IMG/VR virus record: IMGVR_UViG_3300049893_003322 | DNA length: 60,145 nucleotides | DNA from: a virus | Reading direction: 5' to 3' (one strand) | Shown here: positions 9,079 to 53,684 of the stretch, one piece after another | Numbering within the stretch: the stretch's first letter is position 1 | How the letters are laid out: every line of letters begins with the position of its first letter | Position numbers and translations under genes: made by a program | Notes under the pieces: model-generated | Told to the model about the DNA's origin: nothing | The model's input: the letters and a program-made list of their open reading frames with translations, nothing else | The model's database searches: none

Positions 9079-9384
9079 CTATTTCCCACGAGACCGGGCA
9101 CGGGCACTCTTCTTGTCAAAAGACCTGGTCGCGGAATTGAAGCGACGAGTGGTGCGACCTAGTAGGTGCGGTACTGCACCTGGTATGTGACTCCAGGTGC
9201 GACCCGTTGCGGCGAGAAATATTGTGACTCTGCTGACGCGGTAGCGTGAGACAAGGATGCGCGTTGCGCAGCCTTTGCGGGCGAGCCGACGCAGTTCGCG
9301 AACCTTCGCTTCGGTGAGTTTAGCAGCGCCGTGGTATTCACCAAAGGGTGTGCCAATACCGGGGTGTTTCGGGTGGTGGCTCAT
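9079..9384 (-). CDS. small helix-turn-helix protein
   Basis: 101 aa. KLTEAKVRELRRLARKGCATRILVSRYRVSRVTI has HTH geometry. ATG at 9382-9384. Confidence 0.45.
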   Translation of the reverse strand: MSHHPKHPGIGTPFGEYHGAAKLTEAKVRELRRLARKGCATRILVSRYRVSRVTIFLAATGRTWSHIPGAVPHLLGRTTRRFNSATRSFDKKSARARSRGK

Positions 9385-9421: not shown

Positions 9422-10735
9422 TCAATCTTTGTATGGGTCGACCTCGTCTGCTCCGGCCATTACTACAACGAGCGGTCGTAGTCTGTGGAGTACACGTATC
9501 GTATCGCCCTGCGCGGCAAGTACGTCAGGCAATCGTCGGTAGACTTGCGGCGCCTCGTCCAGACCGCCGCCGCGCACCACGACGCCTCGATTTTTCAGCC
9601 AGGCATCGCGTTCCGTCTCCGACACACGACCCGGAGTGATTTGTTCCGTAACTTGTCGTTGATAGGTGGCTTTGCCGCACTTCGGGCAGGAGGGAAACGG
9701 TGCACCACCAGCCGGGATCGTCCCGCCGCAGTCTCGGTCCCGGCACACCCAACTCTTGCGCTGTCTCGTTTTCCCTCGAGCTGCCGTACGACTCATGATA
9801 CGCCCGGCGCCGTGCACCGTTGAGTAAAGCGCTGTTGTTGCCGTTGGCGTGTCCACGCCCTCGAGGATCACGGCATCGTCCCCCATACTCCCGCCAACAA
9901 ACCCCCGCTGGCCCGGAAAAGCCGGGGTTGCACCTTTGCGCACCACGATCAAACCTCCGTTCCGCTCCTCGCGCCACGCGTAGTTGTGATGATTGTGCAC
10001 CGTGTCGACAACGCGGGCTCCGAGCAACTGGACAACCTTGTGACTCACCCATTCGCGCCCGACGTAGGCGTAACGTCCGGCAAGTTCCATGAGTGCCCAA
10101 TAATCCTGACCCAACGCAGAGTCCAGCGACAGTAGTGTCTCGGTCTCGGGGATGCGGTCACCCCACACACGTCCCTGTCCGGCCGCGAGAAATCCTGAGG
10201 CAATACCGTGCCCAAAGCCGCGCGAGCCGAAGTGCACACCGATCCAGATCTGCTCATCGACGTCGTCGAACACGTCGACATAGTGATTGCCCGAGCCCAC
10301 TGTGCCAAGCTGCTTTCGAGCCTTTTCCTTGAGCCCCTGGGCGAATCCCTGCCCAGCTTGTTCGCGAAGGCGATTCCAGTCGAGGCTGTCAAAGAGTGCG
10401 TGGTCCGCAGGCGCGTCGTCCGCTTTGTTCGATCGATTTACGCCAAAGCTGATCGTTGCGGCGATGTCGTCGGCCAGCCGTTCGAGTGTGCGCTGGCGTT
10501 GCGCCGGCGTGCGGCCCAGATCGCTGACGGTTGCGTCAGTTCGCAGTGCGCAATTTCCGCACGCAATGTCAAATCCGACTCCCATCACCGAAACCTGGTT
10601 GTCGTATGCCGCCACGCCACCGATGGGCATGATATAGCCCAGGTGGCCGTCCGCCATTAATGCGGCGCGCTCGGCGCGGTCAGCAACCCTGCGGAACTGG
10701 AGTAGAGTCGACTCATCGTGTTCGCCGAAGATCAT
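9422..10735 (-). CDS. rtcB: RtcB-family RNA 3'-phosphate ligase
   Basis: 437 aa. Conserved RtcB motifs are present: ADGHLGY-like, GVGFDIACG, and STVHGAGR followed by a Cys4 zinc insertion. Sits beside the tRNA/tmRNA array. Confidence 0.85.
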   Translation of the reverse strand: MIFGEHDESTLLQFRRVADRAERAALMADGHLGYIMPIGGVAAYDNQVSVMGVGFDIACGNCALRTDATVSDLGRTPAQRQRTLERLADDIAATISFGVNRSNKADDAPADHALFDSLDWNRLREQAGQGFAQGLKEKARKQLGTVGSGNHYVDVFDDVDEQIWIGVHFGSRGFGHGIASGFLAAGQGRVWGDRIPETETLLSLDSALGQDYWALMELAGRYAYVGREWVSHKVVQLLGARVVDTVHNHHNYAWREERNGGLIVVRKGATPAFPGQRGFVGGSMGDDAVILEGVDTPTATTALYSTVHGAGRIMSRTAARGKTRQRKSWVCRDRDCGGTIPAGGAPFPSCPKCGKATYQRQVTEQITPGRVSETERDAWLKNRGVVVRGGGLDEAPQVYRRLPDVLAAQGDTIRVLHRLRPLVVVMAGADEVDPYKD

Positions 10736-10876
10736 AGTCGGAAAATAAACACCCCCAGTACGCGCCGCGAACCGCGGCGCGTACTGGGGTCTGGGCAGAG
10801 GGGACGAGCATTTGTGCGGAGGGTTAGCTCAGTATAGCCGTGTGCTGAAGGTTGCGCAAGAGTGGTTGGTCCTTCT

Positions 10877-12118
10877 TCATGGTCGCTTGGTACTAAGATC
10901 AAGTGACAAGTCTTTTGCGGCTTTCGCCGTGAGCATTTCGATTAGGGCGCTGCCGCCGTTCCCCTGGCCGGCGGCAGCGCCCATCTGCACACTTGGCACC
11001 CAAGCGCCTTTGTAGTTGGCAATTGCGTTGGCGTACATCTCGCTCACTTTCACATACGCCTCCAGCTTCTTGTCGAGGGCGCCGTCCGCCGCCATGACAA
11101 GCTTTCGACGTTCGGCTTCGCCTTCGCCCATCAGAATCTGCTCCTGTTTCCGGAGCTTTGCCGTTTCTGCATCCAAGGCGGCCACCGCACGTCGCTGCTC
11201 CGCTGTAGTGACCTCCTTCGCCTTGATAACCTCCTGTTCCCACTTGGCTTTCATGGCGTCAGCTTCTCCGTTCTTGGCTGCTGTAATCGCCGCCTGTTCG
11301 GCTTTCTTCGATTCGGCGATGGCCGTCTGTACCTGCATGATCGCGGACTGCTGCGCGTTGATCTGATCCGTCGTCGCCTTGTCGTACGTAATATCGCCCA
11401 GGGAGAGATTGAACGCCCGGAGTTGAAACTCATCCAGGGCGGAGGGTTCCTGTCGGGCAAATCCGTGATCCGCCGCCGCCTGACTCGGCACCACGTCCAC
11501 AATCTTCACGGTCTTTTCCTGACCGGTCATTTCATCCCGAACTTTCGCTTCCCGGACGTTCGTGCGGTACACGCCGTGACTGACCTGGTCGAGAATTAGG
11601 AAGAGCATATCATTCCGACGTGTGGCGAAGGATTCTGTGGAGGACATCAACGGCCCCGTCATTGTGATGACCTTTTCCATCACCGGTCGGATGATCTGGC
11701 GTTCGATGGCTTCGTCCGAACCGTACTTGGAGTGCAAATCGTTCAGCGCGGTCGTGGCGGTCGGCATTTCCCAGGAGATTGCGCCGGAAATTTGCCCCGC
11801 GCCGTTGTCGTTGAACCGTGTCGGCAACGGAATCCCCGAGGCGTCGTCACTCTCTTTTTTGCCGCGAAAGTCGAACTGATGCCGTTTCCGATACTGCGTG
11901 ATTTTGCCAAATCCCTGCCACTTCCATCCTTGGGTGGTGTACCAGCGCAACTCGCCGGTGACGGGAGACTGGACGACCATGATATGGCTGGCGTCCAGGT
12001 TTTCCGCGAGGTTTCCGACGATCAGCGGTGTCAGAATCAGGAGGATGACGGTGCCAATGACGCGGCGACTTCGCGAGAGAATGTTTCGAATCTGATTGAC
12101 CTCAGCGGGGTTACTCAT
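10877..12118 (-). CDS. SPFH/band-7 (stomatin/flotillin-like) membrane protein
   Basis: N-terminal transmembrane helix VIGTVILLILTPLIVGNL. An SPFH-like core is followed by an Ala/Glu/Lys-rich coiled coil (AEQAAITAAKNGEADAMKAKWEQE...). Confidence 0.55.
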   Translation of the reverse strand: MSNPAEVNQIRNILSRSRRVIGTVILLILTPLIVGNLAENLDASHIMVVQSPVTGELRWYTTQGWKWQGFGKITQYRKRHQFDFRGKKESDDASGIPLPTRFNDNGAGQISGAISWEMPTATTALNDLHSKYGSDEAIERQIIRPVMEKVITMTGPLMSSTESFATRRNDMLFLILDQVSHGVYRTNVREAKVRDEMTGQEKTVKIVDVVPSQAAADHGFARQEPSALDEFQLRAFNLSLGDITYDKATTDQINAQQSAIMQVQTAIAESKKAEQAAITAAKNGEADAMKAKWEQEVIKAKEVTTAEQRRAVAALDAETAKLRKQEQILMGEGEAERRKLVMAADGALDKKLEAYVKVSEMYANAIANYKGAWVPSVQMGAAAGQGNGGSALIEMLTAKAAKDLSLDLSTKRP

Positions 12119-12335
12119 GGCTATTCTCGTAGGTGATTTGTTTCTCGACGGCGCGAGTGGTTCGATCGAGACGTGCGGCCTCCAGGCGGGCGGCGGCGTC
12201 CAGGTTGCGGGCCTCGGCTTCCTTCAGTTTGCGATGTTGTCGTGCCCGGGAACCATCCACAATGATGGGCAGTGCAACGCTGACTACGGCGGTGATGACC
12301 AGGCCGATGAACACCAATTCCAAGATGGCGAGCAT
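12111..12335 (-). CDS. small membrane protein (NfeD-like partner of SPFH?)
   Basis: Internal Met MLAILELVFIGLVITAVVSVALPIIV gives a single transmembrane helix plus a charged tail. Stop overlaps the SPFH start by 8 nt. The ORF-track start at 12398 would run into the tmRNA 3' end. Confidence 0.45.
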   Translation of the reverse strand: MLAILELVFIGLVITAVVSVALPIIVDGSRARQHRKLKEAEARNLDAAARLEAARLDRTTRAVEKQITYENSHE

Positions 12336-12353
12336 AGAGTGAGGAGAGAAAAA

Positions 12354-12702
12354 TGGAGGCGGGGGGATTCGAACCCCCGTCCGGAGCAATGTCACCAACC
12401 CGTGATACGAGCGTGCCTAGTTTCTGGTCCCAGGCGGACTGCGGCTCAGGAGAACCACCCAACAGACGAACGATCCTGCAACCTGCAACAACCCTCGGTC
12501 TTGGGTTCACTAGGTCGCCGAGGAACCTAGGCGTTGTTCACGCGGCCGCGAGGGCCGGAGCGAAGGCCGGGGCTTTCCAACCCTGACCTGGAGGCAACGC
12601 AATACCAGCACGAGGCGTGGCATTTGTGGTGTGTTACTGTAAGGCCCGTAACGCTCCGCTCGCACGAACAGGGTCTATCCTCCGTCGAAACCAATCGCCC
12701 CC
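12354..12702 (-). ncRNA. ssrA: tmRNA (SsrA)
   Basis: The 5' end GGGGGCGAUUGGUUUCGACGG pairs with the 3' end ...GGGGGUUCGAAUCCCCCCGCCUCCA, forming a G3:U70 acceptor stem plus T-arm. A reading frame inside ends ...FAPALAAA followed by UGA, the typical proteolysis-tag ending. Length is about 349 nt. CCA is not encoded. Confidence 0.85.
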
Positions 12703-12749
12703 GGTACTATTACTGGTGAGAATATTAGCTTTGTACCCTCCAAACACAA

Positions 12750-12769
12750 GAGCCGCCTGCGGGCGGCTC
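12750..12769 (-). terminator. hairpin terminator overlapping the stop of the phosphoesterase gene
   Basis: AGCCGCC-tgcg-GGCGGCT inverted repeat. On the minus strand it reads TGAGCCGCCCGCAGGCGGCUCUUGUGUUUGG. Confidence 0.6.
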
Positions 12770-13415
12770 AGAGAATGCGTAGTTCCCCGATATCCAACAC
12801 GATCTGGTCCTCATACTGGATGGTCCGGTGCATGTGCCCGCTCACTGTCCGGGGATTTCCTAACCACGTGCGGGCGTAGTCGAGCATGACGGCTACTGGC
12901 GACGTCCAGGCGGCGGGCAGGCCCCAGATGGCGAGATTCCGACGGGAAAAGTGCTTGTCGATGAGGTGTTGTCCCGGGGAGTGGGACACCAGCGTGTCAC
13001 ACGGGACGGGGTGACTGAGCAGGCGAGCCCAGTGCTCCGGCGTGGGCACTTCCTCGGCTTGCCAGCGGTGGTTGACGGCTTTGTCGACGCTGTCGCCACC
13101 CCCCATGAAGAAGATCAGTCGCCCGGCGATGTCCACCGCACCGCCGTTCGGCACGAACGTGAGCAGGTTGTCACGGCGGATCGCGGTCGGCTGCGTGTAG
13201 CGCCTTAGATTGCTCCAATCTTCGTGATTTCCGCCGCACCAGAACACCGGAAGCGTCAGGGGGACTGTGCAAAAGTCCCGCTCGAATTGTGGGTACCAGC
13301 CCAGATCTCCGACCTGGACGACGGCGGCGCATCCGGCGTCGGCAGCTCGCTGGGTTTGCGCCCGGAGCGTGTCCGCGCTGCCGTGGAGGTCCCCGAGAAA
13401 TCCGAGTGTGGTCAT
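12768..13415 (-). CDS. calcineurin-like metallophosphoesterase
   Basis: GDLHG, VVQVGDLGW and GGNHED motifs match the MPP superfamily. 215 aa. Confidence 0.7.
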   Translation of the reverse strand: MTTLGFLGDLHGSADTLRAQTQRAADAGCAAVVQVGDLGWYPQFERDFCTVPLTLPVFWCGGNHEDWSNLRRYTQPTAIRRDNLLTFVPNGGAVDIAGRLIFFMGGGDSVDKAVNHRWQAEEVPTPEHWARLLSHPVPCDTLVSHSPGQHLIDKHFSRRNLAIWGLPAAWTSPVAVMLDYARTWLGNPRTVSGHMHRTIQYEDQIVLDIGELRIL

Positions 13416-13416
13416 A

Positions 13417-13489
13417 TAGCCCCGCTAGGGATCGAACCTAGAGCCTTCTGGGTCAAAGCCAGCTGCACCGCCGATTGTGCTACAGGGCC
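13417..13489 (-). tRNA. tRNA-Gln (anticodon UUG)
   Basis: Cloverleaf read by eye: acceptor GGCCCUG/CGGGGCU, T-loop UUCGAUC, anticodon loop CUUUGAC. No CCA encoded. Overlaps the stop of the downstream ORF. Confidence 0.75.
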
Positions 13490-13827
13490 AGATCTTCTGT
13501 GGGCTTGCCCAGGCGGGCCGCCTGGTCTCGGGTAAAGCCACTCCCGTATGTCGTGCTGGTGGGCTCGTGGATACGCACGAGCTTATCGCAAAATCGGGCG
13601 ATGTCGTTGTTACGCGCCTTGAACTGCGGCCAGGCCTGTGCCAAGGGCAAGCATTCAACCACCCAGAGCCCAGCGGCCTGGGCTTCGTTCGCTGCGAGCT
13701 GGTCGATGCCTGCGCACCCACCACTCACGACTACGCTGGGAGAGAGCCGGCGAAGGACGTCGCGGATGATGTCTCGGGCCCTGGCCTCATCGGTGACGTT
13801 CTTGGAGCCCACAATGGCTAGTCGCAT
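13480..13827 (-). CDS. DUF2493 / SLOG-family protein
   Basis: MRLAIVGSKNVTDE...VVVSGGCAGIDQLAANEAQAAG matches the GGAxGxD Rossmann-like SLOG fold seen in phage DUF2493 proteins. Confidence 0.55.
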   Translation of the reverse strand: MRLAIVGSKNVTDEARARDIIRDVLRRLSPSVVVSGGCAGIDQLAANEAQAAGLWVVECLPLAQAWPQFKARNNDIARFCDKLVRIHEPTSTTYGSGFTRDQAARLGKPTEDLAL

Positions 13828-13983
13828 TCACAGTCGCCGGTCGTTGGTGAGTCGAGTAGTTCCTGCAATTGGGCCTCGGCATCGACATCCCGACGCGCAT
13901 CACTGATCTTCCGGTGCTGCGACGCTCGTTTGTTGACGCGCTCGTCCTTCCAGCCTTTGCACCCGCAATACATGCGTTGATGT

Positions 13984-14496
13984 TTAGGGCGTTTGCGCTT
14001 GTGATGCATTGTGTGTGCGAATGCGAAGGCAGGGCGCGCCCTCGTGCCAAAGGTTGAGGGTAAACGCGTGCGAGAATAGCTCAAGATCGCCCAGTGTAAG
14101 ACTAACGACGGTCACCGACCCCGACTGAGGCAGACGCTGATCGGGGGAGGCAGAGTGAGCGTACAGGACAATTGGCAGCGTGGGAATCGACTTGAGCTCG
14201 TGGATGGCAAGCAACTCCACCCCCCAGCGCAGGCGTGATGAACCGAGGCGTTCCCGGAGGCCGATCCAGTGTTCATCACCCTTAAAGGTGAGGGAGACGA
14301 GGTCCGCGTACGCCTGAGCGATTTCGGGCTCGGAAGCGTCCGCCGCGTTTGCGACCCTCATTATCCGCTCGACCAAGGACTCGGGACTGCTCTGCCTCGC
14401 GAGATCAAGCACGGTCGTGTCCTCACGAAGCTTCCGGTACAGGTACGCAGGGGTATTAGCGAAAAGAAAGCTTTGCAGAACTGAATCCGCGACCAT
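13984..14496 (-). CDS. hypothetical protein
   Basis: ORF-track 13984..14634 trimmed to the internal Met MVADSV so it does not run through tRNA-Gln(CUG). Confidence 0.35.
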   Translation of the reverse strand: MVADSVLQSFLFANTPAYLYRKLREDTTVLDLARQSSPESLVERIMRVANAADASEPEIAQAYADLVSLTFKGDEHWIGLRERLGSSRLRWGVELLAIHELKSIPTLPIVLYAHSASPDQRLPQSGSVTVVSLTLGDLELFSHAFTLNLWHEGAPCLRIRTHNASQAQTP

Positions 14497-14576
14497 TGGA
14501 ATCACTTGAAGCGAAGTCGAAAGTATTTTGCGTGGCCGAAATTGTACGGACACCGCTTGGCCAAGTTCGGTAGGAA

Positions 14577-14649
14577 TAGCCTCGCTAGGGATCGAACCTA
14601 GAACCTTCCGGGTCAGAGCCGGGTGCACCGCCAATTGTGCTACAAGGCC
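14577..14649 (-). tRNA. tRNA-Gln (anticodon CUG)
   Basis: Near-identical paralog of the 13417 tRNA, with anticodon loop CUCUGAC. Acceptor GGCCUUG/CGAGGCU. Confidence 0.75.
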
Positions 14650-14719
14650 AGATTGAGGTAGGACGACCGGAAGCGCGAGCTCTCCCTGGAGCGCGGACGT
14701 ACGGAAGCGCTACCTCAAG

Positions 14720-14791
14720 TCCCTTCGGTCGGATTCGAACCGACGACCACCAGCTTATGAGGCCGGGGCTCTGCCGCTGAGCTACGAAGGA
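14720..14791 (-). tRNA. tRNA-Met elongator-type (anticodon CAU)
   Basis: Acceptor UCCUUCG/CGAAGGG with a paired 1:72. Anticodon loop CUCAUAA. T-loop UUCGAAU. Confidence 0.75.
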
Positions 14792-14799
14792 AGAGACAG

Positions 14800-14871
14800 A
14801 CCGCCTGGAGAGACTCGAACTCTCACGGAGCTGCTTGGAAGGCAGCCGCCTTACCTTTCGGCCACAGACGG
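14800..14871 (-). tRNA. tRNA-Gly (anticodon UCC)
   Basis: Acceptor CCGUCUG/CAGGCGG. Anticodon loop CUUCCAA. T-loop UUCGAGU. Confidence 0.7.
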
Positions 14872-15291
14872 ATGTACTACAACGAATCGATTGTCGAATA
14901 TTTGCGACAACGTCGGGCGGACATCCGCCCACTCCAATCTGCCAAGTCCGCAACCCGGACGAGGTAACACCACCGACACTCCTTTCAAGAGGTCCAGCAT
15001 AGCCACGAGTTCGCAGGCGGATTGCTGAATCAGAGCCAGGTTCGCTCGTTCCCGGTAGTGGTGCTTTGTTGGGAAGCTGGCCAGGCGAAATTGACACACA
15101 GCGTAGACGTGATTTCCATACCGACGTACCTTATCGCCGAGCATCAATGGTAGCGGCGGATACCGCTGCGCGGCCTCGCGGGCGACTCCTGCACCCATCA
15201 CCAATTCGCCGTTCTGCTTGACAATCCCGTTGGTAGTGACCACACGCCACTCCGCCGGATACGTCCAGACATCGCCAATCGCCTCGAGCAT
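14851..15291 (-). CDS. macro-domain (ADP-ribose binding/processing) protein
   Basis: VVTTNGIVKQNGELVMGAGVAREAAQRYP resembles the macrodomain N-terminal glycine-rich motif. 146 aa. Stop overlaps tRNA-Gly by about 20 nt. Confidence 0.5.
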   Translation of the reverse strand: MLEAIGDVWTYPAEWRVVTTNGIVKQNGELVMGAGVAREAAQRYPPLPLMLGDKVRRYGNHVYAVCQFRLASFPTKHHYRERANLALIQQSACELVAMLDLLKGVSVVLPRPGCGLGRLEWADVRPTLSQIFDNRFVVVHPSVAER

Positions 15292-15296
15292 GCGTG

Positions 15297-15533
15297 CTAT
15301 TGCTCTCTGGCCGAGTCTTTCGGCGCATTATCACTGGCTGGCCCGACCAGTGTGTTCAGAATCCGAGTCGCGTCGACTTCGTTCAGAAATCGCGGGTTGG
15401 CACTCCGCCACCGCGCACCATCCAGAGTATGCCCCACGTATGTCCGCTTCGTCCCAGTTGCGGAAGCTGTCGACACGACACGCTCTACGATGCCGATGCG
15501 TCCTTTGTTGCACACTGCCAGTTGTGCTGTCAT
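15297..15533 (-). CDS. hypothetical protein
   Basis: Internal Met MTAQLAV. Lies in operon with the macro-domain gene. Confidence 0.35.
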   Translation of the reverse strand: MTAQLAVCNKGRIGIVERVVSTASATGTKRTYVGHTLDGARWRSANPRFLNEVDATRILNTLVGPASDNAPKDSAREQ

Positions 15534-16159
15534 GCTTCCTCCGGCTGCCGGTAATAAGTCAAGTCGAAGAACACGGGCACTGCGTGCCGCCACCCCACAT
15601 TCGACACCTGGTGCACATCGCCTACGCCCAATTGACGACCGAGTGCGCGAATCGTTTCATACTGGATTCGGTATTGCGTCTCGTCCGGGGCGCAGTATTC
15701 TTGGACCATGGTACCAGGGGTAATGTACACCGTCCACGGAACGTGCTGTCGGTAACCCCGTCGACAGAGATCTCCCACGGCCTTTGCGTCCCCTGCAACG
15801 TCTCCTCGAAGACGGCGCTTCAAGCACCAGAACTCTTCCCGGTGGTCGATGACAAAAGCGATCTTGTATTCGCCGATGTGTGAGATAGCCCGCAGTTCGC
15901 GAAGCTGGAGCCATAGGGAAAAGGCGGAGGCCAGGCGCCAAAATTCGCTCCGGCGTTGATACGTGTGGTCGAGATCGACCGCCGCGATTGGCCAGGCGGC
16001 TAGGGCGTGCGCCGCCCGAAGCACACGCGGCGGAACCCACACTGACTCAGTCGAGGAGAGCCTTCCTGATTTCGCGCTTCTCCGCTCGGCGCTGGCGCTT
16101 CCAGAACTGCCGCTTGCCATACTTACGCAGATGTTTCGCCCATTCTGCAGCTTGCGCAA
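15530..16159 (-). CDS. hypothetical protein
   Basis: 209-aa ORF. Contains a 24-nt DNA segment that recurs exactly at 57008. Confidence 0.4.
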   Translation of the reverse strand: MRKLQNGRNICVSMASGSSGSASAERRSAKSGRLSSTESVWVPPRVLRAAHALAAWPIAAVDLDHTYQRRSEFWRLASAFSLWLQLRELRAISHIGEYKIAFVIDHREEFWCLKRRLRGDVAGDAKAVGDLCRRGYRQHVPWTVYITPGTMVQEYCAPDETQYRIQYETIRALGRQLGVGDVHQVSNVGWRHAVPVFFDLTYYRQPEEA

Positions 16160-16262
16160 GTATGCCCTTTTTGATCGTGCTCATGCTCTCCCTCGTACTG
16201 TGCGTTGCACGCATTGCATTCATAACGATCGGTGCCCCATCGCGTGAACACGGGGGCCCCAG

Positions 16263-16337
16263 TCTCCGAGGCTGGATTCGAACCAGCGGCTTCCGCCATC
16301 CGAAGGCGGCTGTCTGACCGGGCTGACGTACTCGGAG
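16263..16337 (-). tRNA. tRNA-Pro (anticodon CGG)
   Basis: Acceptor CUCCGAG/CUCGGAG. Anticodon loop UUCGGAU. T-loop UUCGAAU. Confidence 0.75.
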
Positions 16338-16548
16338 CGTAGTACACAACAATCCTTGGCAACACGAGTCCGCAGGCGCGACACACGAATCCCGTTGAAT
16401 TTTCGTATACAGACGCGTGCCGACATCCATCGACTACGTTAGCAACAAGCCCGGCAGGGCATCCGCAGCTAGCCACATGCGGCGCGTGAATACTGTGACA
16501 ACGCGGGCATTCCCAGCCGAGAGGAGTGAGACTCATACTGCCCTCCAG

Positions 16549-16782
16549 TTAATCCGAGTCTGCACCGGCGCAATACGAACACACCAAGGGAGTGCCGTCG
16601 CAGGCCGTGCAGCGCCAGCTGCCGTCGCCGTTGCAGCTGCCGCAGCGCACGTAGTGACTGTGGCCGCACGAGCAGCAGCACTCGATCTCGCCGTCACCGT
16701 TGCAGTTCGGGCACTCTACGATGCCGCTAGTGCATTCGTAACACTGGCCCGTACCGTCACCGTCGCACTCTGGACAGGACAT
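16549..16782 (-). CDS. DnaJ-type zinc-finger miniprotein (CxxCxGxG repeats)
   Basis: 77 aa from Met MSCPECDGDG. Carries CPECDGDG, CPNCNGDG and CGSCNGDG repeats. The ORF-track N-terminal extension would run through tRNA-Pro(UGG). Confidence 0.5.
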   Translation of the reverse strand: MSCPECDGDGTGQCYECTSGIVECPNCNGDGEIECCCSCGHSHYVRCGSCNGDGSWRCTACDGTPLVCSYCAGADSD

Positions 16783-16824
16783 TATGGAGCCTCCCAGGTT
16801 AGGACTTGGAGTAAAGCGTATAAG

Positions 16825-16898
16825 TCGGGACAGCAGGACTCGAACCTGCAACCTCCTGCTTCCAAAGCAGGTAGTCTGACCAATTGACGTATGTCCCG
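16825..16898 (-). tRNA. tRNA-Pro (anticodon UGG)
   Basis: Acceptor CGGGACA/UGUCCCG. Anticodon loop UUUGGAA. T-loop UUCGAGU. Confidence 0.75.
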
Positions 16899-17068
16899 CC
16901 GGCTTCCGCACCTTTTCGAAGGGTGCGCAGGTGCCGATTCGCGCCGTCCGTCGACTTTGCGAACAACCTGCTGACGCACAGTTTCCCTAGACGGCCAACG
17001 TCAGCTTCCCGTCCTCGGGCGCAGGTTAACTTGTCGACAGGTCGCCTGCGCGCGTAGACTGTCGCGAG

Positions 17069-17142
17069 AGCCCTCCGCCAGATTCGAACTGGCGACTTCC
17101 TGTTTACGAAACAGGCGCTCTGGCCGGCTGAGCTAGAAGGGC
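17069..17142 (-). tRNA. tRNA-Thr (anticodon CGU)
   Basis: Acceptor GCCCUUC/GGAGGGC. Anticodon loop UUCGUAA. T-loop UUCGAAU. Confidence 0.75.
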
Positions 17143-17423
17143 ATATTAGCCACAGTGACGAGTACGTCGCCATGACAAGCTTGCGGCGCGCACCAACATC
17201 CCAAAATCTTACCCCGAAGCTCCCGCTGCGCCTTTTGTACTAGTTCGGGCTGAGCCAGAAGCCACTCACGATAGAGGTCGATCACGCGACGCCGCTCCTC
17301 GACCGTATGACTTTGCATTACGAACGGATTCCCCCACTCTCCCGGGGCGCCCGTCTTGGGACACTGGCCTCGACCGATATATACGTCGTAGTTTGCGTAC
17401 TTGCAGTGCACAACGAGCTTCAT
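17133..17423 (-). CDS. DUF4326-family protein
   Basis: YIGRG...GNPF...GCWCAPQACHGDVL matches the phage DUF4326 signature. Start trimmed to the internal Met to clear tRNA-Cys. Confidence 0.5.
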   Translation of the reverse strand: MKLVVHCKYANYDVYIGRGQCPKTGAPGEWGNPFVMQSHTVEERRRVIDLYREWLLAQPELVQKAQRELRGKILGCWCAPQACHGDVLVTVANMPF

Positions 17424-17429
17424 AAGAAG

Positions 17430-17502
17430 AGTCTCGAGTTGGAATCGAACCAACGTTTTTGAGGTTGCAGCTCAACGCCAAGATCCACTAGGCTTTCGAG
17501 AC
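17430..17502 (-). tRNA. tRNA-Cys (anticodon GCA)
   Basis: Acceptor GUCUCGA/UCGAGAC. Anticodon loop CUGCAAC. T-loop UUCGAUU. Confidence 0.7.
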
Positions 17503-18180
17503 CACGTGTCGCAGGTCTTCGATACGGTTCGACAGACGTGGCAGTAGTGTCACCACCACGGCGTGCACGGCCGGAACGCGTTCCCGAACATCACTCCACT
17601 CCGCCAACAAGGCTTTCGTCACTTTGTGTGCGGGGTTCTTCTGCAGAATTCGGTCCAGGGCGCTCCACATAGCCGGATCCCCGCCGCAACGACCAAACTC
17701 CCGGCAGAAGAACGGATGCTCGGTCTGGTACATACGAAAATAATCTTGTCGGGTGTCGGACAGACTGGCCCGTACGTTGGCCAGGCGGTCTGCCAACTTG
17801 ACGTTGAGTAGATACGGATAGGGTCGCAACGCTTCCCGCAGCTTCACATACGTCAGACGCTGGCGCTCGTGGCGGTTCGCTCCCGGCTCATCGGTCAGCG
17901 CCCACACGGCGTCGGCAATAGCCAATCCGAACTCCATCTCGACATCCTCGCGGGTTGTCGGGGTGTCCTCGAGCACGTCGTGCAAATGCGCGATAGTCAG
18001 CGGAATGGGCTGTGTATGTCGAAACTCGACCAGGACGTCCGACACTGCCTTCAGATGGACACTGAAATCGGCGCCCCCGTAGCTATGTCCCGCTCTCCGA
18101 TGTCGCTCGGCCGCCCACGTCAGCGATCGTTCCACCTCCGATCCATTCCACATACAGTCTCCCGGCAAACTGCGTCGCAC
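17488..18180 (-). CDS. HD-domain hydrolase, SpoT/RelA-type (putative (p)ppGpp hydrolase)
   Basis: The HLHDVLEDT motif corresponds to the SpoT/Mesh1 HD hydrolase motif (HDVVEDT). An upstream His is present. 230 aa. Confidence 0.6.
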   Translation of the reverse strand: MRRSLPGDCMWNGSEVERSLTWAAERHRRAGHSYGGADFSVHLKAVSDVLVEFRHTQPIPLTIAHLHDVLEDTPTTREDVEMEFGLAIADAVWALTDEPGANRHERQRLTYVKLREALRPYPYLLNVKLADRLANVRASLSDTRQDYFRMYQTEHPFFCREFGRCGGDPAMWSALDRILQKNPAHKVTKALLAEWSDVRERVPAVHAVVVTLLPRLSNRIEDLRHVVSKA

Positions 18181-18181
18181 A

Positions 18182-18255
18182 TACCCTCGGTAGGATTCGA
18201 ACCTACAAGAATTAGTTTAGGAAACTAACGTCGACTCCGCTTCGACCTCGAGGGC
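18182..18255 (-). tRNA. tRNA-Arg (anticodon CCU)
   Basis: Acceptor GCCCUCG/CGAGGGU. Anticodon loop UUCCUAA. T-loop UUCGAAU. Confidence 0.75.
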
Positions 18256-18325
18256 GGTTCTCTTCAGTCGTCGGCCTGCGCGGTATCCAAGGCTGAGCGA
18301 GGCTTTATCCTGCTCCGGTCTCGCA

Positions 18326-18700
18326 TCAGCATCGGCACCACCGACCCGTGTTGGGCATTACAGAAACCGCGCGATCGTCCCACAGTTCTTCCATCTCGTA
18401 GTCTTTCGTCGCCGTCACTGGTAAGACTTGGCCCAAATGGGCCTGGCACCAAACCTGAATCACAGGGACCTGGTCCGGATCCGAAGCGCGGGCTGTGAAA
18501 ATACGGACGTCGCGCCCCGCTGCCAACCAGCTCTTTACAAGTTCGAGAATCGGGCGAACGGGCGCGCCGATAGTATAGAGCGAATCTCCATGATTGCGCA
18601 CGGCAAGAGTTCCGTCAAGATCTACGCCTATCCAGCCCACGATGCCCTCCAAAGGAGTCGAACCTTCATTCTCGGGGTAGAAGCCCGATGTCTTGTCCAT
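18326..18700 (-). CDS. HAD-superfamily phosphatase-like protein
   Basis: Internal Met MDKTSG. The IGVDLDGTLAV motif is the DxDGT HAD motif I. Start trimmed to avoid tRNA-Val(UAC). Confidence 0.45.
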   Translation of the reverse strand: MDKTSGFYPENEGSTPLEGIVGWIGVDLDGTLAVRNHGDSLYTIGAPVRPILELVKSWLAAGRDVRIFTARASDPDQVPVIQVWCQAHLGQVLPVTATKDYEMEELWDDRAVSVMPNTGRWCRC

Positions 18701-19040: not shown

Positions 19041-19424
19041 CTAGTCCGAAAGCACCACCCGACGTCGGGACAAGGACTGGGGCTCTTTCGCAACGCAACC
19101 AGCCACGCGAACGAGTGCTGCGTCCGCCGAGTCGAGGAGTGCGAAGACCGGCTTCGTTACTAAATCATCCACAGGGCACGCGTCATGATATACGGCAACA
19201 ACTTGCCCGAGTCGAAGTCTCTCCGGTCTGCCAGGGGGCTGTAGCGGACACAAAGCCCAGTCGTCGACGCAAATCTGGAGCGAGGGGGGCGCGTGGTACA
19301 ACAGCACCTTGGGCACGTCTACAATACGTACCTCACACCAAGTGGGCCTCGCCTCCTCTTCCTCCTCTTTCTCCCACTCCCACTCGTCGAGCCAGTCGAA
19401 GTTGTCCGTGTAAAGCACAGTCAT
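19041..19424 (-). CDS. hypothetical acidic protein
   Basis: 127-aa ORF with a Trp/Glu-rich N-terminus (DEWEWEKEEEEE). Confidence 0.4.
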   Translation of the reverse strand: MTVLYTDNFDWLDEWEWEKEEEEEARPTWCEVRIVDVPKVLLYHAPPSLQICVDDWALCPLQPPGRPERLRLGQVVAVYHDACPVDDLVTKPVFALLDSADAALVRVAGCVAKEPQSLSRRRVVLSD

Positions 19425-19937: not shown

Positions 19938-20387
19938 CTATCTGATACCGCAATCGAAAAATACTGGCGCGCGTCCTCTTCGAAATCCTACGTTCTGCCA
20001 GTGGATATCGATCAGATCGAGTCCGAGACACCGCGCCAATGTCTCGATAGCTCTACGGTTCTTTCTGTATCGACACCAGTTCGGAGGACATCGCTCTTGC
20101 ACACAGACCTTGGCAGTTATCCTGCGAATCTTCGGAAAATAGCGTCGATGTCGCGTTCGGCGTTTTTCTGCAATAAACCTCGCGTCGTTATGGTGGTACG
20201 GAGTGGAGTGGCGGCAAATCTTGATACAATATCGCCGGCCGACAAGCACGCTCTTGTAGGCGCCGCCGGTTAGCGACAGAACTGGAAACCCAGCAGCGCG
20301 AGCTGTGGTTACAAGAACGTCGTCCTCTCCGTTCGCAATCTTGGCAATAGCTCGAGCCGCACGCAGTACGTGATTTGGAATTCGCAT
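19938..20387 (-). CDS. hypothetical protein with protein-kinase-like catalytic motifs
   Basis: LIDIHWQNVGF resembles the kinase catalytic loop (DxHxxN). VFFDCG resembles a DFG-like motif. 149 aa, tentative. Confidence 0.35.
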   Translation of the reverse strand: MRIPNHVLRAARAIAKIANGEDDVLVTTARAAGFPVLSLTGGAYKSVLVGRRYCIKICRHSTPYHHNDARFIAEKRRTRHRRYFPKIRRITAKVCVQERCPPNWCRYRKNRRAIETLARCLGLDLIDIHWQNVGFRRGRAPVFFDCGIR

Positions 20388-20425: not shown

Positions 20426-20499
20426 TACCCTTCGTAGGATTCGAACCTACAACCTCTTGATTCGTAGTCAAGCGCTCTGTCCAGTTGAGCTAGAAAGGT
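20426..20499 (-). tRNA. tRNA-Arg (anticodon ACG)
   Basis: Acceptor ACCUUUC/GAAGGGU. Anticodon loop CUACGAA. T-loop UUCGAAU. Confidence 0.75.
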
Positions 20500-20746
20500 G
20501 GTTCACGATGTGGAACAATTCTCGTGGCGTCAGCGGAGGCGGCTCGTTGTATTTGCGATACACCGCGATATGTGCTAGCCACGCTTGAGCGCAAGCTTCT
20601 TCGTCATAGTCCACTCGGCGTTGCCTGCACTCGTACGCACTCAGGCGGTTATACGCCTTCCACGAGGCACCCTGCTCTCGAATGAAAGCTTTCGACAACT
20701 CTGCCTGTTCCGCTTTGGTGAGCCGCGTTGCTTTTTTCTTTGACAT
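20468..20746 (-). CDS. small hypothetical protein
   Basis: Lys-rich N-terminus MSKKKATRLTKAEQ. The C-terminus overlaps tRNA-Arg(ACG), so it may be truncated or not real. Confidence 0.3.
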   Translation of the reverse strand: MSKKKATRLTKAEQAELSKAFIREQGASWKAYNRLSAYECRQRRVDYDEEACAQAWLAHIAVYRKYNEPPPLTPRELFHIVNHLSSSTGQSA

Positions 20747-21676: not shown

Positions 21677-21820
<144 letters not shown>

Positions 21821-22035: not shown

Positions 22036-22116
22036 TGCGCTGCGCAGGAGTCGAACCTGCACCCTTTTCAGGACCATCATCTCAGAATGGTGTGTCTGCC
22101 GTTTCACCAGCAGCGC
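22036..22116 (-). tRNA. tRNA-Ser (anticodon UGA), class II
   Basis: Acceptor GCGCUGC/GCAGCGC. Anticodon loop UCUGAGA. Variable arm. T-loop UUCGACU. Confidence 0.65.
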
Positions 22117-22510
22117 GATTAACGCCCCACGTATCCGTTTGTTGATGACAGTTCGGGCACAGCAATTCCAGGTTGCTCCGCCGATTGTCCCGACGATCGC
22201 CGTTTCTATGGTGCAGATGTAGCTTGAGAGGTTTTCCGTTCCAGCTGTGCAGCGAGCACGTGTGGCACCTGTAGGAGAATCCCTCAGCGAGCAGCAGGGC
22301 GAGAAGGTTCCAGGATTTAACCCGCGAACCCTTTCGGAAGGGATCTGCACCCCGCCGTATCGTGTCAAACGCAATGCGGTAGTACACGAGCTGGGCTCGC
22401 AATTCGTGAACGAACCGCCCGTGGTGCGCTCGTCCAAAATGCTCCGCGATCTCTCGCAGCGACCGACACCGCGTGGTGGCCTCCACCAACTCGTCGCGCG
22501 TATATCTCAT
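22082..22510 (-). CDS. HNH homing-type endonuclease
   Basis: HLHHRNGDRRDNRRSNLELLCPNCH is a canonical HNH motif. ATG at 22508-22510 sits just 3' of tRNA-Thr(GGU). The ORF-track TTG start at 22564 would lie inside that tRNA. The 3' end overlaps tRNA-Ser(UGA). Confidence 0.65.
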   Translation of the reverse strand: MRYTRDELVEATTRCRSLREIAEHFGRAHHGRFVHELRAQLVYYRIAFDTIRRGADPFRKGSRVKSWNLLALLLAEGFSYRCHTCSLHSWNGKPLKLHLHHRNGDRRDNRRSNLELLCPNCHQQTDTWGVNRAAGETADTPF

Positions 22511-31578: not shown

Positions 31579-32076
31579 TCATGAAGTCACCTGCGAAAGA
31601 GGGATCAGGTCGTTGTCGAACAGGGCCAGGAATAGCTCTGCCCGCGCTCGCCATCGCTTCGGCACCTCGACGATCTGGCTCGCCCCGAAGGCCGCATGCA
31701 ACGGGCAGTTGCTCCAGTTGTGGCACGCCCAATGTTCCGGGGTCGCTACGTCGGCCAGCGGGCGTCCGCCCGCCGCGAGCAGCGCAGGCACCGCAGCGAG
31801 GAACTGCTCGTACGTGCGTCCGTTCGGCAGAAGGGCCTTTTGTAGCTTGGCACCCTGCATCACGGCGTACTGCAGATCGGCGCCCCGCAAATCGGCGCCC
31901 CGCAAATCGGCGTCCCGCAGATCAGCATACTGCAGATTGACGTTCCGAAGTTTGGCATTCCGCAGATCGACGCCTCGCAGATCGGCGCGCCGGCCGTCGA
32001 GCCTGCAATTCAACCACAGGTTGTGTAAGCGCACTACCTCGGCCACGGGGACCGGGTTTGTGTTGCGTGGGGTCAT
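31579..32076 (-). CDS. pentapeptide-repeat protein (PRP) 1
   Basis: A(D/N)L(R/Q)xA(D/N/K)L repeats after the N-terminus [18 protein letters not shown]. The C-terminus, with conserved Cys/His/Trp, is shared with PRP3. Confidence 0.8.
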
Positions 32077-32783
32077 GGCGTCACCTGCGAGAGGGGGAGC
32101 AGGCCCGCGTCGAACCGTTGGATAAACACATCCACCGCGTTGCGATGGGCGGCCGGAACCTCAGCGATATTTGTGGCGCCAAAAGCCGCGTGCATCGGGC
32201 AGTTGGTCCAGTCATGACACGCCCAGTGCTCGGCCGTCGCCACTTCGGCCAGGGGCCGCCCGCCCGCCACCAGGAGCGCGGGCACAACCTCAGTGACATA
32301 CTGCTCCCACGTAACCCCCTCGGGTAGCGTCGCGCCCTGCAGCTTGGCGCCCCGCAGCTTGGCGCCCCACAGATCGGCGCCCCCAAGATTGGCGTCCTCA
32401 AGATTAGCGTCCTGCAAATCGGCGAACTGCAAATTGGCATTCGGGAGATTAGCGCCCCGCAGATCGGCGTCCCGCAGATCGGCGCCCCAAAGCTTGGCGT
32501 TCCGCAGCTCGGCGCCCCCAAGATTAGCGCCCCGCAGATTGGCATTCTGGAGATTAGCGCCCCGCAGATCGGCGCGCTGTAGCTGGGCGTCCTGCAGCTT
32601 GGCGTCCCGAAGCTTGGCGTTCCGCAGATTGGCGCCCTCAAGATTAGCGTTCTGCAGATCAGCGCCCCGCAGATCGGCGCCCCGCAGATCGGCGCGCCGG
32701 CCGTCGAGCCTGACATTCAACCACAGTTCGTGTAAGCGCACTACCTCGGCCAGGGCGGGCGGGCTTATGTAACGCGGGGTCAT
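32073..32783 (-). CDS. pentapeptide-repeat protein (PRP) 2
   Basis: Starts [18 protein letters not shown], overlapping PRP3's stop. Roughly 30 consecutive A(D/N)LxG/A pentapeptides. Confidence 0.8.
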
Positions 32784-33472
32784 GGCGTCACCTGCGAAAG
32801 GGGGATCAGGTCGTTGTCGAACAGGGCCAGGAATAGCTCTGCCCGCGCTCGCCATCGCTTCGGCACCTCGACGATCTGGCTCGCCCCGAAGGCCGCACGC
32901 AGCGGGCAGTTGCTCCAGTTGTGGCACGCCCAATGTTCCGGGGTCGCTACGTCGGCCAGCGGGCGTCCGCCCGCCGTGAGCAGCGCAGGCACCGCAGCGA
33001 GGAACTGCTCGTACGTGCGGCCGTTCGGCAGGAGGGCCTTTTGTAGCTTGGCGCCCTCCAGCTGGGCGTACTGCAAATCAGTGCGCCGCAAATCGGCGCC
33101 CCGCAGATCAGCGTCCTGCAGCTCGGCGCACTGCAGCTTGGCGCCCCGAAGTTTGGCGTTCCGCAGATTGGCGTCCCCAAGATTAGCGCCCCGCAGATCA
33201 GCGTCCTGCAGATCGACGTTCCGCAGATCAGCGCCCTGCAGATCGGCGAGCTGCAGATTGACGCCCTGCAGCTTGGCGCCCCCAAGCTTGGCGTTCCGCA
33301 GATTGACGTTCCGCAGATTAGCGTTCCGCAGATTAGCGTTCCGCAGATCGACTTTCCGCAGATTGGCGTCCCCCAGATCGGCGCGCCGGCCGTCGAGCCT
33401 GCCATTCAACCACAGTTCGTGTAAGCGCACTACCTCGGCCACGGGGACCGGGTTTGTGTTGCGTGGGGTCAT
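32780..33472 (-). CDS. pentapeptide-repeat protein (PRP) 3
   Basis: 230 aa. The N-terminal 120 nt and the C-terminal region are nearly identical at the DNA level to PRP1. Confidence 0.8.
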   Translation of the reverse strand: MTPRNTNPVPVAEVVRLHELWLNGRLDGRRADLGDANLRKVDLRNANLRNANLRNVNLRNAKLGGAKLQGVNLQLADLQGADLRNVDLQDADLRGANLGDANLRNAKLRGAKLQCAELQDADLRGADLRRTDLQYAQLEGAKLQKALLPNGRTYEQFLAAVPALLTAGGRPLADVATPEHWACHNWSNCPLRAAFGASQIVEVPKRWRARAELFLALFDNDLIPLSQVTP

Positions 33473-34963: not shown

Positions 34964-35935
34964 TCATAGCCCCTCCGGCGTAAGGAGCCTGTCGACTGCA
35001 GCTACTTGTGTCGCGCTCGTTACATGCGTGTAGATTTGCGTGGTGCGGATATCCGCGTGTCCCATGAGGGTCTGCACCGTACGCAAATCCACCTCGGCAT
35101 TTAGCAAATCGGTCGCAAACGTGTGCCGAAGTGTATGCGGTCCAAAAGGCGCCCCGTGCAACGTAGGTGCCAAGCCGGCCGCGTCGCGAATTGTCGCGAA
35201 TATCCGATCACCCTCTCGACGACTTAGCCGTCGTCCTCTGTGCATGAACACCGGTTGACTAGGATACGCGGTAAGCGGCCCCAGGATGTGGTGCAGGACA
35301 TCCCAAGACGTGTCTTTATCGACGAGCCGACCGACTTCTCGCAACAACAAGGAGCGCAACAGTCGACGACCGGCGCGAGCCGACAATGGCAAGTCTCGAG
35401 GACGACCGCCTTTTCCCTGAATACGGAGCGCCACGCTCTCGCCAAGTAGCTGAACATCCCGGTAGGAAAGCTGGCAGCTTTCCTGAAGGCGTACACCGTG
35501 TCGCCATACGTCGAGAAGTGCAGTCCAGTGAGGTCCCTCCGGCCCGGCAAGCGCAGGCGAGGAGTAAAGGGCTTCTAACATACTGTAATCCTTGATCGGC
35601 CTGGGCAATCCCGGCACACGACGCGCCCCACGCAAGGCTCGCGCAGGATTTTCTGGAAACACTTTCGGCAGAGCGTCAAAGAACGCGATCAGGGCATACC
35701 GATCTCCGCGAATCTTGGCGCTGCCGGCACCTCCTTCCAGGCGACGCCGCCATGCTCGTAGATTCTCGGCCAAATCGGGCAGCGCCAGCAATTCATTCGA
35801 CGCTACGACGAGGGGCACCTCTCGCGCCAGTCGTACCAGATTTGTGCGGTACACCTCTCGACTCCGAGGCGCCAGGGCCGGACTACGAGTTTCCCACACT
35901 CGGTCAGCCTGCGCGAGAACATCGTCGAAGATCAT
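34964..35935 (-). CDS. int: tyrosine recombinase / phage integrase
   Basis: C-terminal [39 protein letters not shown] is the tyrosine-recombinase catalytic signature (R...HxxR...Y). The ATG overlaps the nadV stop. Confidence 0.85.
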
Positions 35936-53306: not shown

Positions 53307-53684
53307 TTACTTAGTTCGGCGGATGTAGCAACGGTCGTTGACCTGCATGGCCTCATAAAGAGCGCTGCCTATCAACTTCAGAATGGTAGGCAGATCCTCC
53401 TGAAATCTTCCGTAGGACAGTCGGTGGGGGTACGGCACCCAACCATGTCGCCGCAGGGCGGCATCTTGACTCAGATCGTCGCAGTTGTAGTTGGCGAGCG
53501 CCGCATCAGCGTCCGCGACCGCTTCTCGCACGAATCCTTCGATGTGGTATACACTCTCCTCCGGAGCTTCAGCTTCGTTGTCCGACACCACACATTCTCT
53601 CAGTGCCGCAAGGGCCTCGTATAACTCACGGTTGGCGCGGCGCAGCCTCTCGACCGAGCATACATCCTGTGCGAGCTTCTTCAC
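53307..53684 (-). CDS. hypothetical protein
   Basis: 125 aa. Stop overlaps the PRP4 start. Confidence 0.4.
   Translation of the reverse strand: MKKLAQDVCSVERLRRANRELYEALAALRECVVSDNEAEAPEESVYHIEGFVREAVADADAALANYNCDDLSQDAALRRHGWVPYPHRLSYGRFQEDLPTILKLIGSALYEAMQVNDRCYIRRTK

Follow-up and report, generated by a model that had tools for sequence, protein, structure and literature searches.

A compact tRNA island with RNA-ligase, macrodomain and alarmone-hydrolase-type genes on the contig of a putative large phage

The IMG/VR virus record IMGVR_UViG_3300049893_003322 is a whole metagenome contig, 60,145 bp long, of the Joint Genome Institute (JGI), which we call the window. Within 15 kb of one strand it carries 41 tRNA genes, a transfer-messenger RNA (tmRNA) gene and a gene for the RNA ligase RtcB, an arrangement that fits the tRNA islands with RNA-repair genes of large phages, and small enzyme genes are tightly packed among the tRNAs (Table 1). 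Judging from sequence, and with moderate confidence, we read this island as an accessory set of independent functions in counter-defence and in the maintenance of translation. An earlier note on the same DNA had named eight protein families in the region and seen in them a toolkit that would reseal cleaved tRNAs, remove ADP-ribose or alarmone signals and replace depleted tRNAs. Seven of the eight family assignments stand, and profile or structure-based evidence was found for the RtcB, HD and macro domains alike, the three on which that note had made its reading depend. A counter-defence role is plausible in that it agrees with the comparative genomics of large phages (PMC7824862, PMC9503650), and surveys of jumbo phages describe tRNAs as 'supplemented' by RtcB or Rnl ligases (PMC7824862). 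The gene content is richer than first listed, and also includes an SPFH protein, a small transmembrane open reading frame (ORF), the tmRNA, at least five ORFs without a family and an HNH endonuclease.

The features of the tRNA island, with RtcB, SPFH and tmRNA, are all on the minus strand, which holds nearly all genes of the window from about 6.5 kb to its right end. ARAGORN places the 41 tRNAs and one tmRNA between 12,354 and 24,257, and 37 of the tRNAs reach the Rfam gathering score. Read along the minus strand, the order is the array with its embedded ORFs, the metallophosphoesterase, a short hairpin, the tmRNA, a hydrophobic ORF, the SPFH gene, a strong hairpin and RtcB. Packing within the array is extreme: nine ORFs stop exactly at, or 10-35 nt within, the next tRNA gene (the ends at or in tRNAs include 13480, 14851, 17133, 17488, 19041, 19938, 20468 and 22082), and in three of them, which overlap by 10 or 11 nt, the TAG stop codon is the tRNA's own U8-A9-G10. 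The stop codon of the SLOG gene thus falls within tRNA-Gln(ttg) (13416-13490), that of the macrodomain gene within tRNA-Gly(tcc), that of the DUF4326 gene within tRNA-Thr(cgt), that of the HD gene within tRNA-Cys and that of the HNH endonuclease gene 35 nt inside tRNA-Leu(gag). Several start codons come directly after a tRNA, and the ATG of the metallophosphoesterase immediately follows the last base of a tRNA-Gln. As separate promoters or terminators would find no space here, the simplest reading is that the embedded ORFs are co-transcribed with the tRNAs, and we consider this very likely. A sigma-70 scan stayed at chance level, and no repeated promoter-like motifs were found in the island besides the similarity of one tRNA to another. 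The small ORFs would then be transcribed with the tRNAs as tRNA-mRNA precursors, each enzyme blunting a different host attack. The claim of the earlier note that the genes are interleaved and co-regulated with the tRNAs accordingly holds, as far as packing can indicate, for the ORFs that abut or overlap tRNAs; RtcB is not interleaved, lying past the tmRNA, the SPFH gene and two hairpins, and its co-regulation is not well supported.

The 41 tRNAs may replace a depleted pool and make translation largely independent of host tRNAs, while the tmRNA could rescue ribosomes that stall on cleaved mRNAs. A CCA end is encoded in none of the 41 tRNA genes (a T follows most of them), and the phage would therefore depend on a CCA-adding enzyme, which was not seen in the window. 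The two tRNA-Gln genes share 90% identity and have different anticodons, and a (GT)n microsatellite of roughly 17 units (about 21690-21733) lies immediately downstream of tRNA-Ser(gct). ORF stops inside tRNAs also occur elsewhere, three in one locus with a related RtcB (L019), four in another (L038) and one in Tunturiibacter phage Tunturi_5. With such overlaps, excision of the tRNAs would leave mRNAs without stop codons. This invites the speculation that the island is a tRNA-punctuated operon as in mitochondria, in which cuts by RNase P and RNase Z would yield stop-less and leaderless mRNAs, enzyme expression would compete with tRNA maturation, enzyme output would rise whenever host nucleases or processing were disturbed, and the phage tmRNA would free the ribosomes held up on the shortened messages. 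We regard this as highly unlikely; a literature search found the term 'tRNA punctuation' used only for mitochondria.

The RtcB assignment is supported by a strong Pfam match, and its catalytic residues are intact. The motifs GFDIACG, GSGNHY, HFGSRGFGH, HNHHNY and VHGAGR, with D56/C59, N150/H151, the histidine of HFGSRGFGH, that of HNHHNY and H308, align with D95, C98, N202/H203, H234, H329 and H404 of P. horikoshii RtcB, which are the metal ligands and the GMP-accepting histidine of that enzyme. The protein is thus predicted to join RNA ends with a 3'-phosphate or 2',3'-cyclic phosphate to 5'-OH ends. Compared with P. horikoshii RtcB it has an insert of about 57 aa near the C-terminus (residues about 323-379), with CxxC pairs and further cysteines, which may be a zinc ribbon; its nearest phage relatives measure 435-449 aa and Gemmatimonadota homologues about 406 aa. 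The strong hairpin just upstream of the gene is terminator-like, and its region folds at -54 kcal/mol (z = -3.9), a value equalled by none of 200 shuffles. As the RtcB ATG lies 6 nt after the U-run of this hairpin, with no Shine-Dalgarno site in between, RtcB would need read-through or an unrecognised signal, and read-through probably accounts for its expression. The second hairpin, by the metallophosphoesterase stop, is weak by fold alone (z = -0.97). Because of the two hairpins we treat RtcB as a separate or attenuated unit, and co-regulation with the tRNAs is supported only for the embedded ORFs. Made by read-through, RtcB might rejoin RNAs after cleavage by metal-independent nucleases. The ends left by PIN-type VapC nucleases should not be substrates for it, which makes the VapC part of the challenge with anticodon nucleases proposed in the earlier note doubtful.

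The HD protein is of the small alarmone hydrolase (SAH) type, as far as its sequence tells. Besides MESH1 (1e-9), it matches the hydrolase domains of Rel proteins, bacterial small alarmone hydrolases (4e-8) and, in part, TIGR00691 (4.8e-13), while its Pfam HD_4 score of 26.7 bits falls just short of the cutoff (27.2). H42, H67-D68, E71-D72 and D131 align with MESH1, and the protein is a single domain with no synthetase domain. The SpoT-type label given to it earlier is therefore apt. By its single HD domain and the H...HD..ED...D residues it is of the type of MESH1, C. marina ATfaRel and PaSpo of Salmonella phage SSU5, but it has about 60 extra, unmatched C-terminal residues and no toxSAS partner. 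SAH enzymes neutralise toxSAS toxins and strip pyrophosphate from tRNA CCA ends (10.1101/2021.04.30.441581), and PaSpo is an SAH encoded by phage SSU5 that acts against toxSAS (PMC9712102). The HD protein of the window could likewise remove a 3'-pyrophosphate from (p)ppGpp, from (p)ppApp, or from tRNA CCA ends modified by toxSAS/CapRel-type defences.

A second candidate for undoing a host modification is the stand-alone macrodomain. No direct Pfam match was obtained for it, and PF01661 is carried by relatives of 50-59% identity. PADLOC DarG (3e-13) and NCBIfam antitoxin_DarG (1.4e-13) both match it, the latter in its macro part only; the NCBIfam score is 50.8 against a cutoff of 250, and only profile positions 73-137 of 338 are matched. 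Among PDB sequences the DarG macrodomains 5m3i (4e-8) and 5m31 (8e-6) and TARG1 (2e-3) are hit, and the protein aligns end to end with the PhiKZ protein AdfM, gp104 (26% identity, E = 2e-11). N21 (in TTNG) and K76 (in FPTK) are kept, K76 at the position of the catalytic lysine K80 of DarG and K84 of TARG1. AdfM is a stand-alone, DarG2-like macrodomain that strips the ADP-ribose added by DarT2 from phage DNA (PMC13309987). The window protein resembles AdfM in size, macro fold, conserved Asn and FPTK lysine; it is nevertheless only 26% identical, its activity is a prediction, and no sign of a phage nucleus is seen in the window phage. Its best-supported substrate is expected to be ADP-ribosylated DNA rather than an alarmone or soluble signal, and the protein may take ADP-ribose off phage DNA after attack by DarT-like toxins. 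The proposal that these enzymes remove ADP-ribose or alarmone signals thus agrees with the type of the HD protein and does not suit the macrodomain, whose DarG/AdfM type points to ADP-ribosyl-DNA. A role as antitoxin of a DarTG pair in situ was ruled out: unlike bacterial DarG (PMC5179494), the protein has no C-terminal DarT-binding domain and no DarT adjoins it, its neighbours being tRNA-Gly and a family-less ORF of 98 aa.

The SLOG and DUF4326 proteins extend this ADP-ribose theme. Both earlier assignments are borne out by Pfam scores above cutoff. The SLOG protein, with an SGGCAGID loop, also gives PADLOC matches to the SLOG regions of ShosA and PsyrA (about 1e-5) and secondary DprA-like matches; DUF4326 is present in 1072 phage records. 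Macro, SLOG, Nudix and DUF4326 statistically co-occur in large viruses and have been placed with RNA-repair genes, and SLOG and DUF4326 are predicted to process NAD/ADP-ribose derivatives (PMC9503650, PMC7824862). ORF83, a phage protein resembling DprA/LOG, is listed among those that evade type III Avs (10.1101/2025.06.06.658234). As in the viral NAD+/ADP-ribose network described by Iyer, Burroughs and Aravind (PMC9503650), the window combines Macro, SLOG, DUF4326 and a Nudix fusion, partly clustered and near RNA-repair genes; its proteins, however, are small, separate and spaced by tRNAs rather than fused, and no NADAR match was found among the window proteins scanned. SLOG and DUF4326 might process nucleotides derived from NAD or ADP-ribose alongside the NAMPT/NMNAT-Nudix pair 17 kb away. 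That NAD+ salvage pair lies outside the island and shares its functional theme; a tyrosine-recombinase-like gene (34964-36013) overlaps the end of NAMPT.

Two candidate phosphoesterases complete the set of enzymes. The metallophosphoesterase named in the earlier note carries the classic motifs GDLHG, GDLG, GNHE and GHMH (residues 8, 35, 61 and 193); neither it nor DUF4326 gave a significant match to PDB sequences. The HAD assignment was confirmed by other means: no Pfam family reaches its cutoff (HAD_PNKP, E = 0.2), and its family, which lacks a Pfam domain, numbers more than 4600 proteins, each about 105-115 aa long. An alignment of 41 sequences shows HAD motifs I-IV, with D9 and T11, T49, K79, and D88 and D89 invariant and D7 kept in at least 90%. 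An AlphaFold2 (AF2) model (pLDDT 90.9) has only HAD proteins as top PDB matches in Foldseek (2obb, 5uj0, 2ia5 and 9iqw; E = 2e-3 to 4e-2, TM-score up to 0.67), of which 5uj0 is the T4 Pnkp 3'-phosphatase and 9iqw the phage phosphatase AfhF. The modelled fold appears nearest to the T4 Pnkp 3'-phosphatase. Both enzymes would hydrolyse phosphoesters.

A rival reading has the island as a whole directed at tRNA. In an integrated tRNA-repair operon all enzymes would act on tRNA, each reversing a different lesion, and a single precursor would yield both the enzymes and the replacement tRNAs: RtcB would mend anticodon-loop nicks, the HD protein would remove pyrophosphate from the CCA end and the macrodomain ADP-ribose from RNA, and the HAD protein, the metallophosphoesterase and DUF4326 would trim 2'- and 3'-phosphates. 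The genes are indeed physically interleaved with tRNAs, the nearest fold to the HAD protein is that of an RNA end-healing domain, the linkage of RtcB to tRNAs recurs in other phages, and SAH enzymes restore pyrophosphorylated tRNA (10.1101/2021.04.30.441581). The macrodomain, however, is closest to the DNA-acting DarG and AdfM (PMC13309987), the relatives of the macrodomain, HAD protein and DUF4326 are mostly found away from tRNAs, and RtcB stands behind terminator-like hairpins.

The chemistry is a further obstacle. RtcB seals with no prior healing of the ends, and its substrate would be lost to a 3'-phosphatase. T4 Pnkp and Rnl1 repair tRNA-Lys cut by PrrC, and the island resembles that pair in being a putative phage-encoded answer to anticodon nucleases and in the Pnkp-like fold of its HAD protein; the chemistry nonetheless differs, as RtcB joins a 3'-phosphate or cyclic phosphate straight to 5'-OH. 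A T4-like heal-and-seal pathway of HAD protein and RtcB was ruled out, since RtcB requires the 3'-phosphate, and neither a polynucleotide kinase domain nor an ATP-grasp RNA ligase was matched among the window proteins scanned against PHROGs and Pfam (about 20 small ORFs were unscanned). We therefore find a dedicated tRNA-repair operon quite unlikely, and prefer a set of independent functions.

How far this set forms a module was judged from related loci, tRNA proximity being counted in loci of at least 8 kb. Relatives of RtcB in IMG/VR (44-56% identical) occupy 56 loci, of which 16 have a tRNA within 2 kb and 10 have at least three tRNAs within 10 kb; the corresponding figures are 6 and 6 for the 77 loci of mini-HAD relatives, and 0 and 1 for the 12 loci of macro relatives. 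The difference within 2 kb between RtcB and the pooled HAD and macro loci (6/89) is significant (Fisher p = 6e-4). RtcB lies in tRNA islands in L019 and L038, and in the latter 29 tRNAs and a tmRNA stand immediately upstream of it. SPFH relatives, on viral contigs of 100-467 kb (L066-L079), have a tRNA or tmRNA within 5 kb in 13 of 14 loci, many of them from one sample. Linkage to tRNAs thus recurs for RtcB and perhaps for SPFH, and the full gene set is not a conserved module.

Tunturi_5 (PP885688, 308 kb) has an RtcB 45% identical to that of the window, in or next to at least 37 same-strand tRNAs, and its array is likewise interspersed with small ORFs and with Nudix, cytidylyltransferase and HNH endonuclease genes. 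There is, however, no DNA similarity, the interleaved genes include RimK-like genes and one for a CCA-adding enzyme, and RtcB lies inside the array, whereas that of the window lies outside. Within 25 kb around the Tunturi_5 RtcB, only RtcB itself has a relative in the window island; macro, HD, SLOG, HAD and DUF4326 were not found by tblastn or phmmer. Caulobacter phage phiCbK encodes a Band-7/SPFH protein, RtcB, an HD protein (35% identical), an NMNAT-type cytidylyltransferase and NAMPT within 10 kb (gp238-gp256), the band-7 gene being two genes upstream of RtcB, but the gene order is different, the 18-kb stretch holds no tRNA genes, and relatives of macro, SLOG, HAD and DUF4326 were not found in it by the same searches. 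Rhizobium phage RHph_I1_18 has an HD gene that closes a tRNA island also containing a Nudix gene.

Several observations weigh against a functionally coherent counter-defence set. Tblastn and phmmer searches of 172 related loci found island proteins recurring only as scattered pairs (RtcB with HD in 4, RtcB with DUF4326 in 3, macro with DUF4326 in 1 and macro with HAD in 1); an iterative search of the loci apparently ran as a single pass, its match counts being equal to those of tblastn. The other island genes almost never recur in the 56 loci with a related RtcB. As counted above, the relatives of the macrodomain and HAD protein are mostly not near tRNAs, and the nearest macro relatives adjoin ribonucleotide reductase (RNR) and dCMP deaminase genes instead. 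DUF4326 is known in some T4-like phages as 'NrdA.1', a neighbour of nrdA, at least five island ORFs lack any family match, and two terminator-like hairpins part RtcB from the array. The presence of an HNH endonuclease gene among the tRNAs is a hint of build-up through mobile DNA.

In an alternative reading the array is a recombination and homing hot spot that gathered unrelated small accessory and nucleotide-metabolism genes without functional coupling, and their place between tRNAs would carry no hint of a shared role or of defence. HNH genes are also found in the arrays of L038 and Tunturi_5, orphan ORFs sit within the window array, synteny is not conserved, and the same families occur in nucleotide-metabolism neighbourhoods elsewhere. 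Against such uncoupled accretion stands the concentration of phosphoesterases and ADP-ribose- or nucleotide-processing enzymes: they make up about 6 of the 16 island ORFs, whereas the rest of the window has about 3 among 50 (Fisher p about 0.005; the categories were set post hoc). So do the recurrence of gene pairs in phages that are not related, namely RtcB with HD, macro with DUF4326, and HD with Nudix next to tRNAs, and the published co-occurrence of Macro, SLOG, Nudix and DUF4326 (PMC9503650). We consider accretion alone unlikely, and retain the accessory set of independent counter-defence and translation-maintenance functions as our preferred interpretation.

The window most probably represents part of a large, uncultured tailed phage, as its genes suggest: it holds an rIIA/rIIB pair, a class I RNR, ThyX, a clamp loader and an ATP-dependent DNA ligase, and many of its ORFs match PHROG families. 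It has a G+C content of 0.57-0.64. Close relatives are absent. A search of 50,697 phage records found no near-identical DNA for the region; the top RtcB match, at 64% identity, is on small phage contigs that lack the island, and the top macro match is 59% identical. As queries of IMG/VR, the HD protein gave no loci and the macro protein 9 only. It could be asked whether the contig is instead a bacterial or plasmid tRNA-array island, with RNA-repair and stress genes for the cell's own use, as no virion genes are found within the 60-kb window, the contig did not turn up in the IMG/VR search, whose best viral RtcB match is 52% identical, and RtcB is 60-63% identical to bacterial proteins, including some from Gemmatimonadota and one on a 3-Mb contig. 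The phage-type genes listed above, the PHROG matches, the packing of genes in one direction and the phage contigs that surround the closest relatives of RtcB, macro, SPFH and HAD all speak against such an origin, which we hold to be extremely unlikely.

Table 1. Features of the tRNA island and the related NAD+ salvage genes, with positions in the window
Feature	Position	Strand	Evidence or remark
RtcB RNA ligase, 437 aa	9422-10735	-	PF01139 213 bits (cutoff 27); phrog_1075 1e-69
Terminator-like hairpin, 17-bp stem, 14 G-C pairs, U-run	10753-10789	-	between SPFH gene and RtcB
SPFH/Band-7 protein, 413 aa, N-terminal transmembrane helix	10877-12118	-	PF01145 31 bits; phrog_11908 1.4e-42
Small hydrophobic transmembrane ORF, about 74 aa	12111-12335	-	ORF list and coding score
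tmRNA	12351-12702	-	Rfam RF00023 82 bits, full length; ARAGORN
Short G+C-rich hairpin with T-rich tail	12750-12769	-	right after metallophosphoesterase stop, before tmRNA
Calcineurin-like metallophosphoesterase, 215 aa	12768-13415	-	PF00149 46 bits (cutoff 21.5); phrog_1649
tRNA array, 41 genes, all 20 amino acids	13416-24257	-	ARAGORN
SLOG (YAcAr/DUF2493) protein, 115 aa	13480-13827	-	PF10686 31.8 bits (cutoff 28.2)
Family-less ORF, about 170 aa	13984-14496	-	positive coding score
Stand-alone macrodomain, DarG/TARG1/AdfM type, 146 aa	14851-15291	-	PADLOC, NCBIfam and PDB matches
Family-less ORF, 98 aa	15297-15593	-	no family match
Family-less near-orphan ORF, 164 aa	15530-16024	-	no family match
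Cys-rich ORF, strong Shine-Dalgarno site	16123-16536	-	doubtful as one gene
Cys-rich miniprotein, 77 aa	16549-16782	-	DnaJ cysteine-rich resemblance by motif only
DUF4326 protein, 96 aa	17133-17423	-	PF14216 85 bits (cutoff 25); phrog_464 7e-32
Stand-alone HD hydrolase, RelA/SpoT hydrolase type, 230 aa or slightly shorter	17488-18180	-	MESH1 and TIGR00691 matches
Minimal capless HAD phosphatase, 104 aa (108 in JGI gene call)	18326-18640	-	motifs and AF2 model
Further small ORFs in array	19041-19424, 19938-20387, 20468-20746	-	within tRNA array
HNH endonuclease	22082-22510	-	HNH_3 25.1 bits
NAMPT and NMNAT-Nudix fusion, NAD+ salvage pair	35932-38285	-	phrog_448 1e-132; phrog_395 and phrog_1198

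The one family assignment that did not hold is the DnaJ zinc finger. The 77-aa miniprotein contains the CxxCxGxG motif three times and another four CxxC motifs, and its gene has a good Shine-Dalgarno site, but there is no match to DnaJ_CXXCXGXG even at E = 5, its best match being an ANCHR-like B-box (0.015), and it has no J domain. Searches of Pfam, PHROG, NCBIfam and PADLOC gave no match for the ORF of about 170 aa, and its single-sequence AF2 model (pLDDT 40) is unusable. The 164-aa ORF has only two relatives among 1.84 billion representative proteins. The Cys-rich ORF next to the miniprotein reads in frame through tRNA-Pro(cgg) (16262-16337), with CxxC pairs flanking the tRNA on both sides; its coding score is poor and it has no homologue in phage records.

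Between the array and RtcB, the end of the small hydrophobic ORF overlaps the start codon of the SPFH gene by 8 nt, and its product may be a membrane partner of the SPFH protein. Downstream of RtcB, and separated from it solely by a 101-aa ORF, lies a gene for an 850-aa homologue of the major vault protein (MVP; 6567-9119, minus strand), which matches rat MVP 4hl8 over residues 493-794 (E = 2.4e-15) as well as Pfam MVP_shoulder (71 bits) and Vault_3; one earlier report describes phage MVP homologues (bioRxiv 10.1101/2023.11.10.566534). Farther away on the minus strand are two pentapeptide-repeat ORFs (31579-32076, Pfam Pentapeptide 1.7e-21, and 32780-33472, 1.7e-40) and two ORFs (32073-32933 and 53681-54631) that match phrog_7713, a family without an assigned function, in 3-6 repeated stretches. 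Around the pentapeptide and phrog_7713 ORFs (31579-33472 and 53681-54631) the G+C content climbs to 0.62-0.65.

Each component of the island has a published phage precedent, in Tunturi_5, phiCbK, AdfM, PaSpo, ORF83 and the surveys by Iyer and Aravind, and the island is not new in kind. The contig represents a new, unrelated lineage with a particularly compact version of the known logic of jumbo-phage islands, which combines tRNAs and RNA ligases with an HD alarmone hydrolase and with Macro, SLOG, DUF4326 and Nudix genes close to those for RNA repair. Our current understanding is unchanged: this logic had already been put forward for jumbo phages, and individual components have been confirmed in other systems. 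If our interpretation is true, RNA resealing, removal of ADP-ribose from DNA, hydrolysis of alarmones or tRNA pyrophosphate, and NAD/ADP-ribose processing would be united in a single co-transcribed block that also holds a tmRNA and an almost complete set of tRNAs. The island would then offer, in little space, candidate enzymes to be tried against DarT, toxSAS/CapRel and HEPN-type anticodon nucleases, and these come from a lineage of phages that has no cultured relative.

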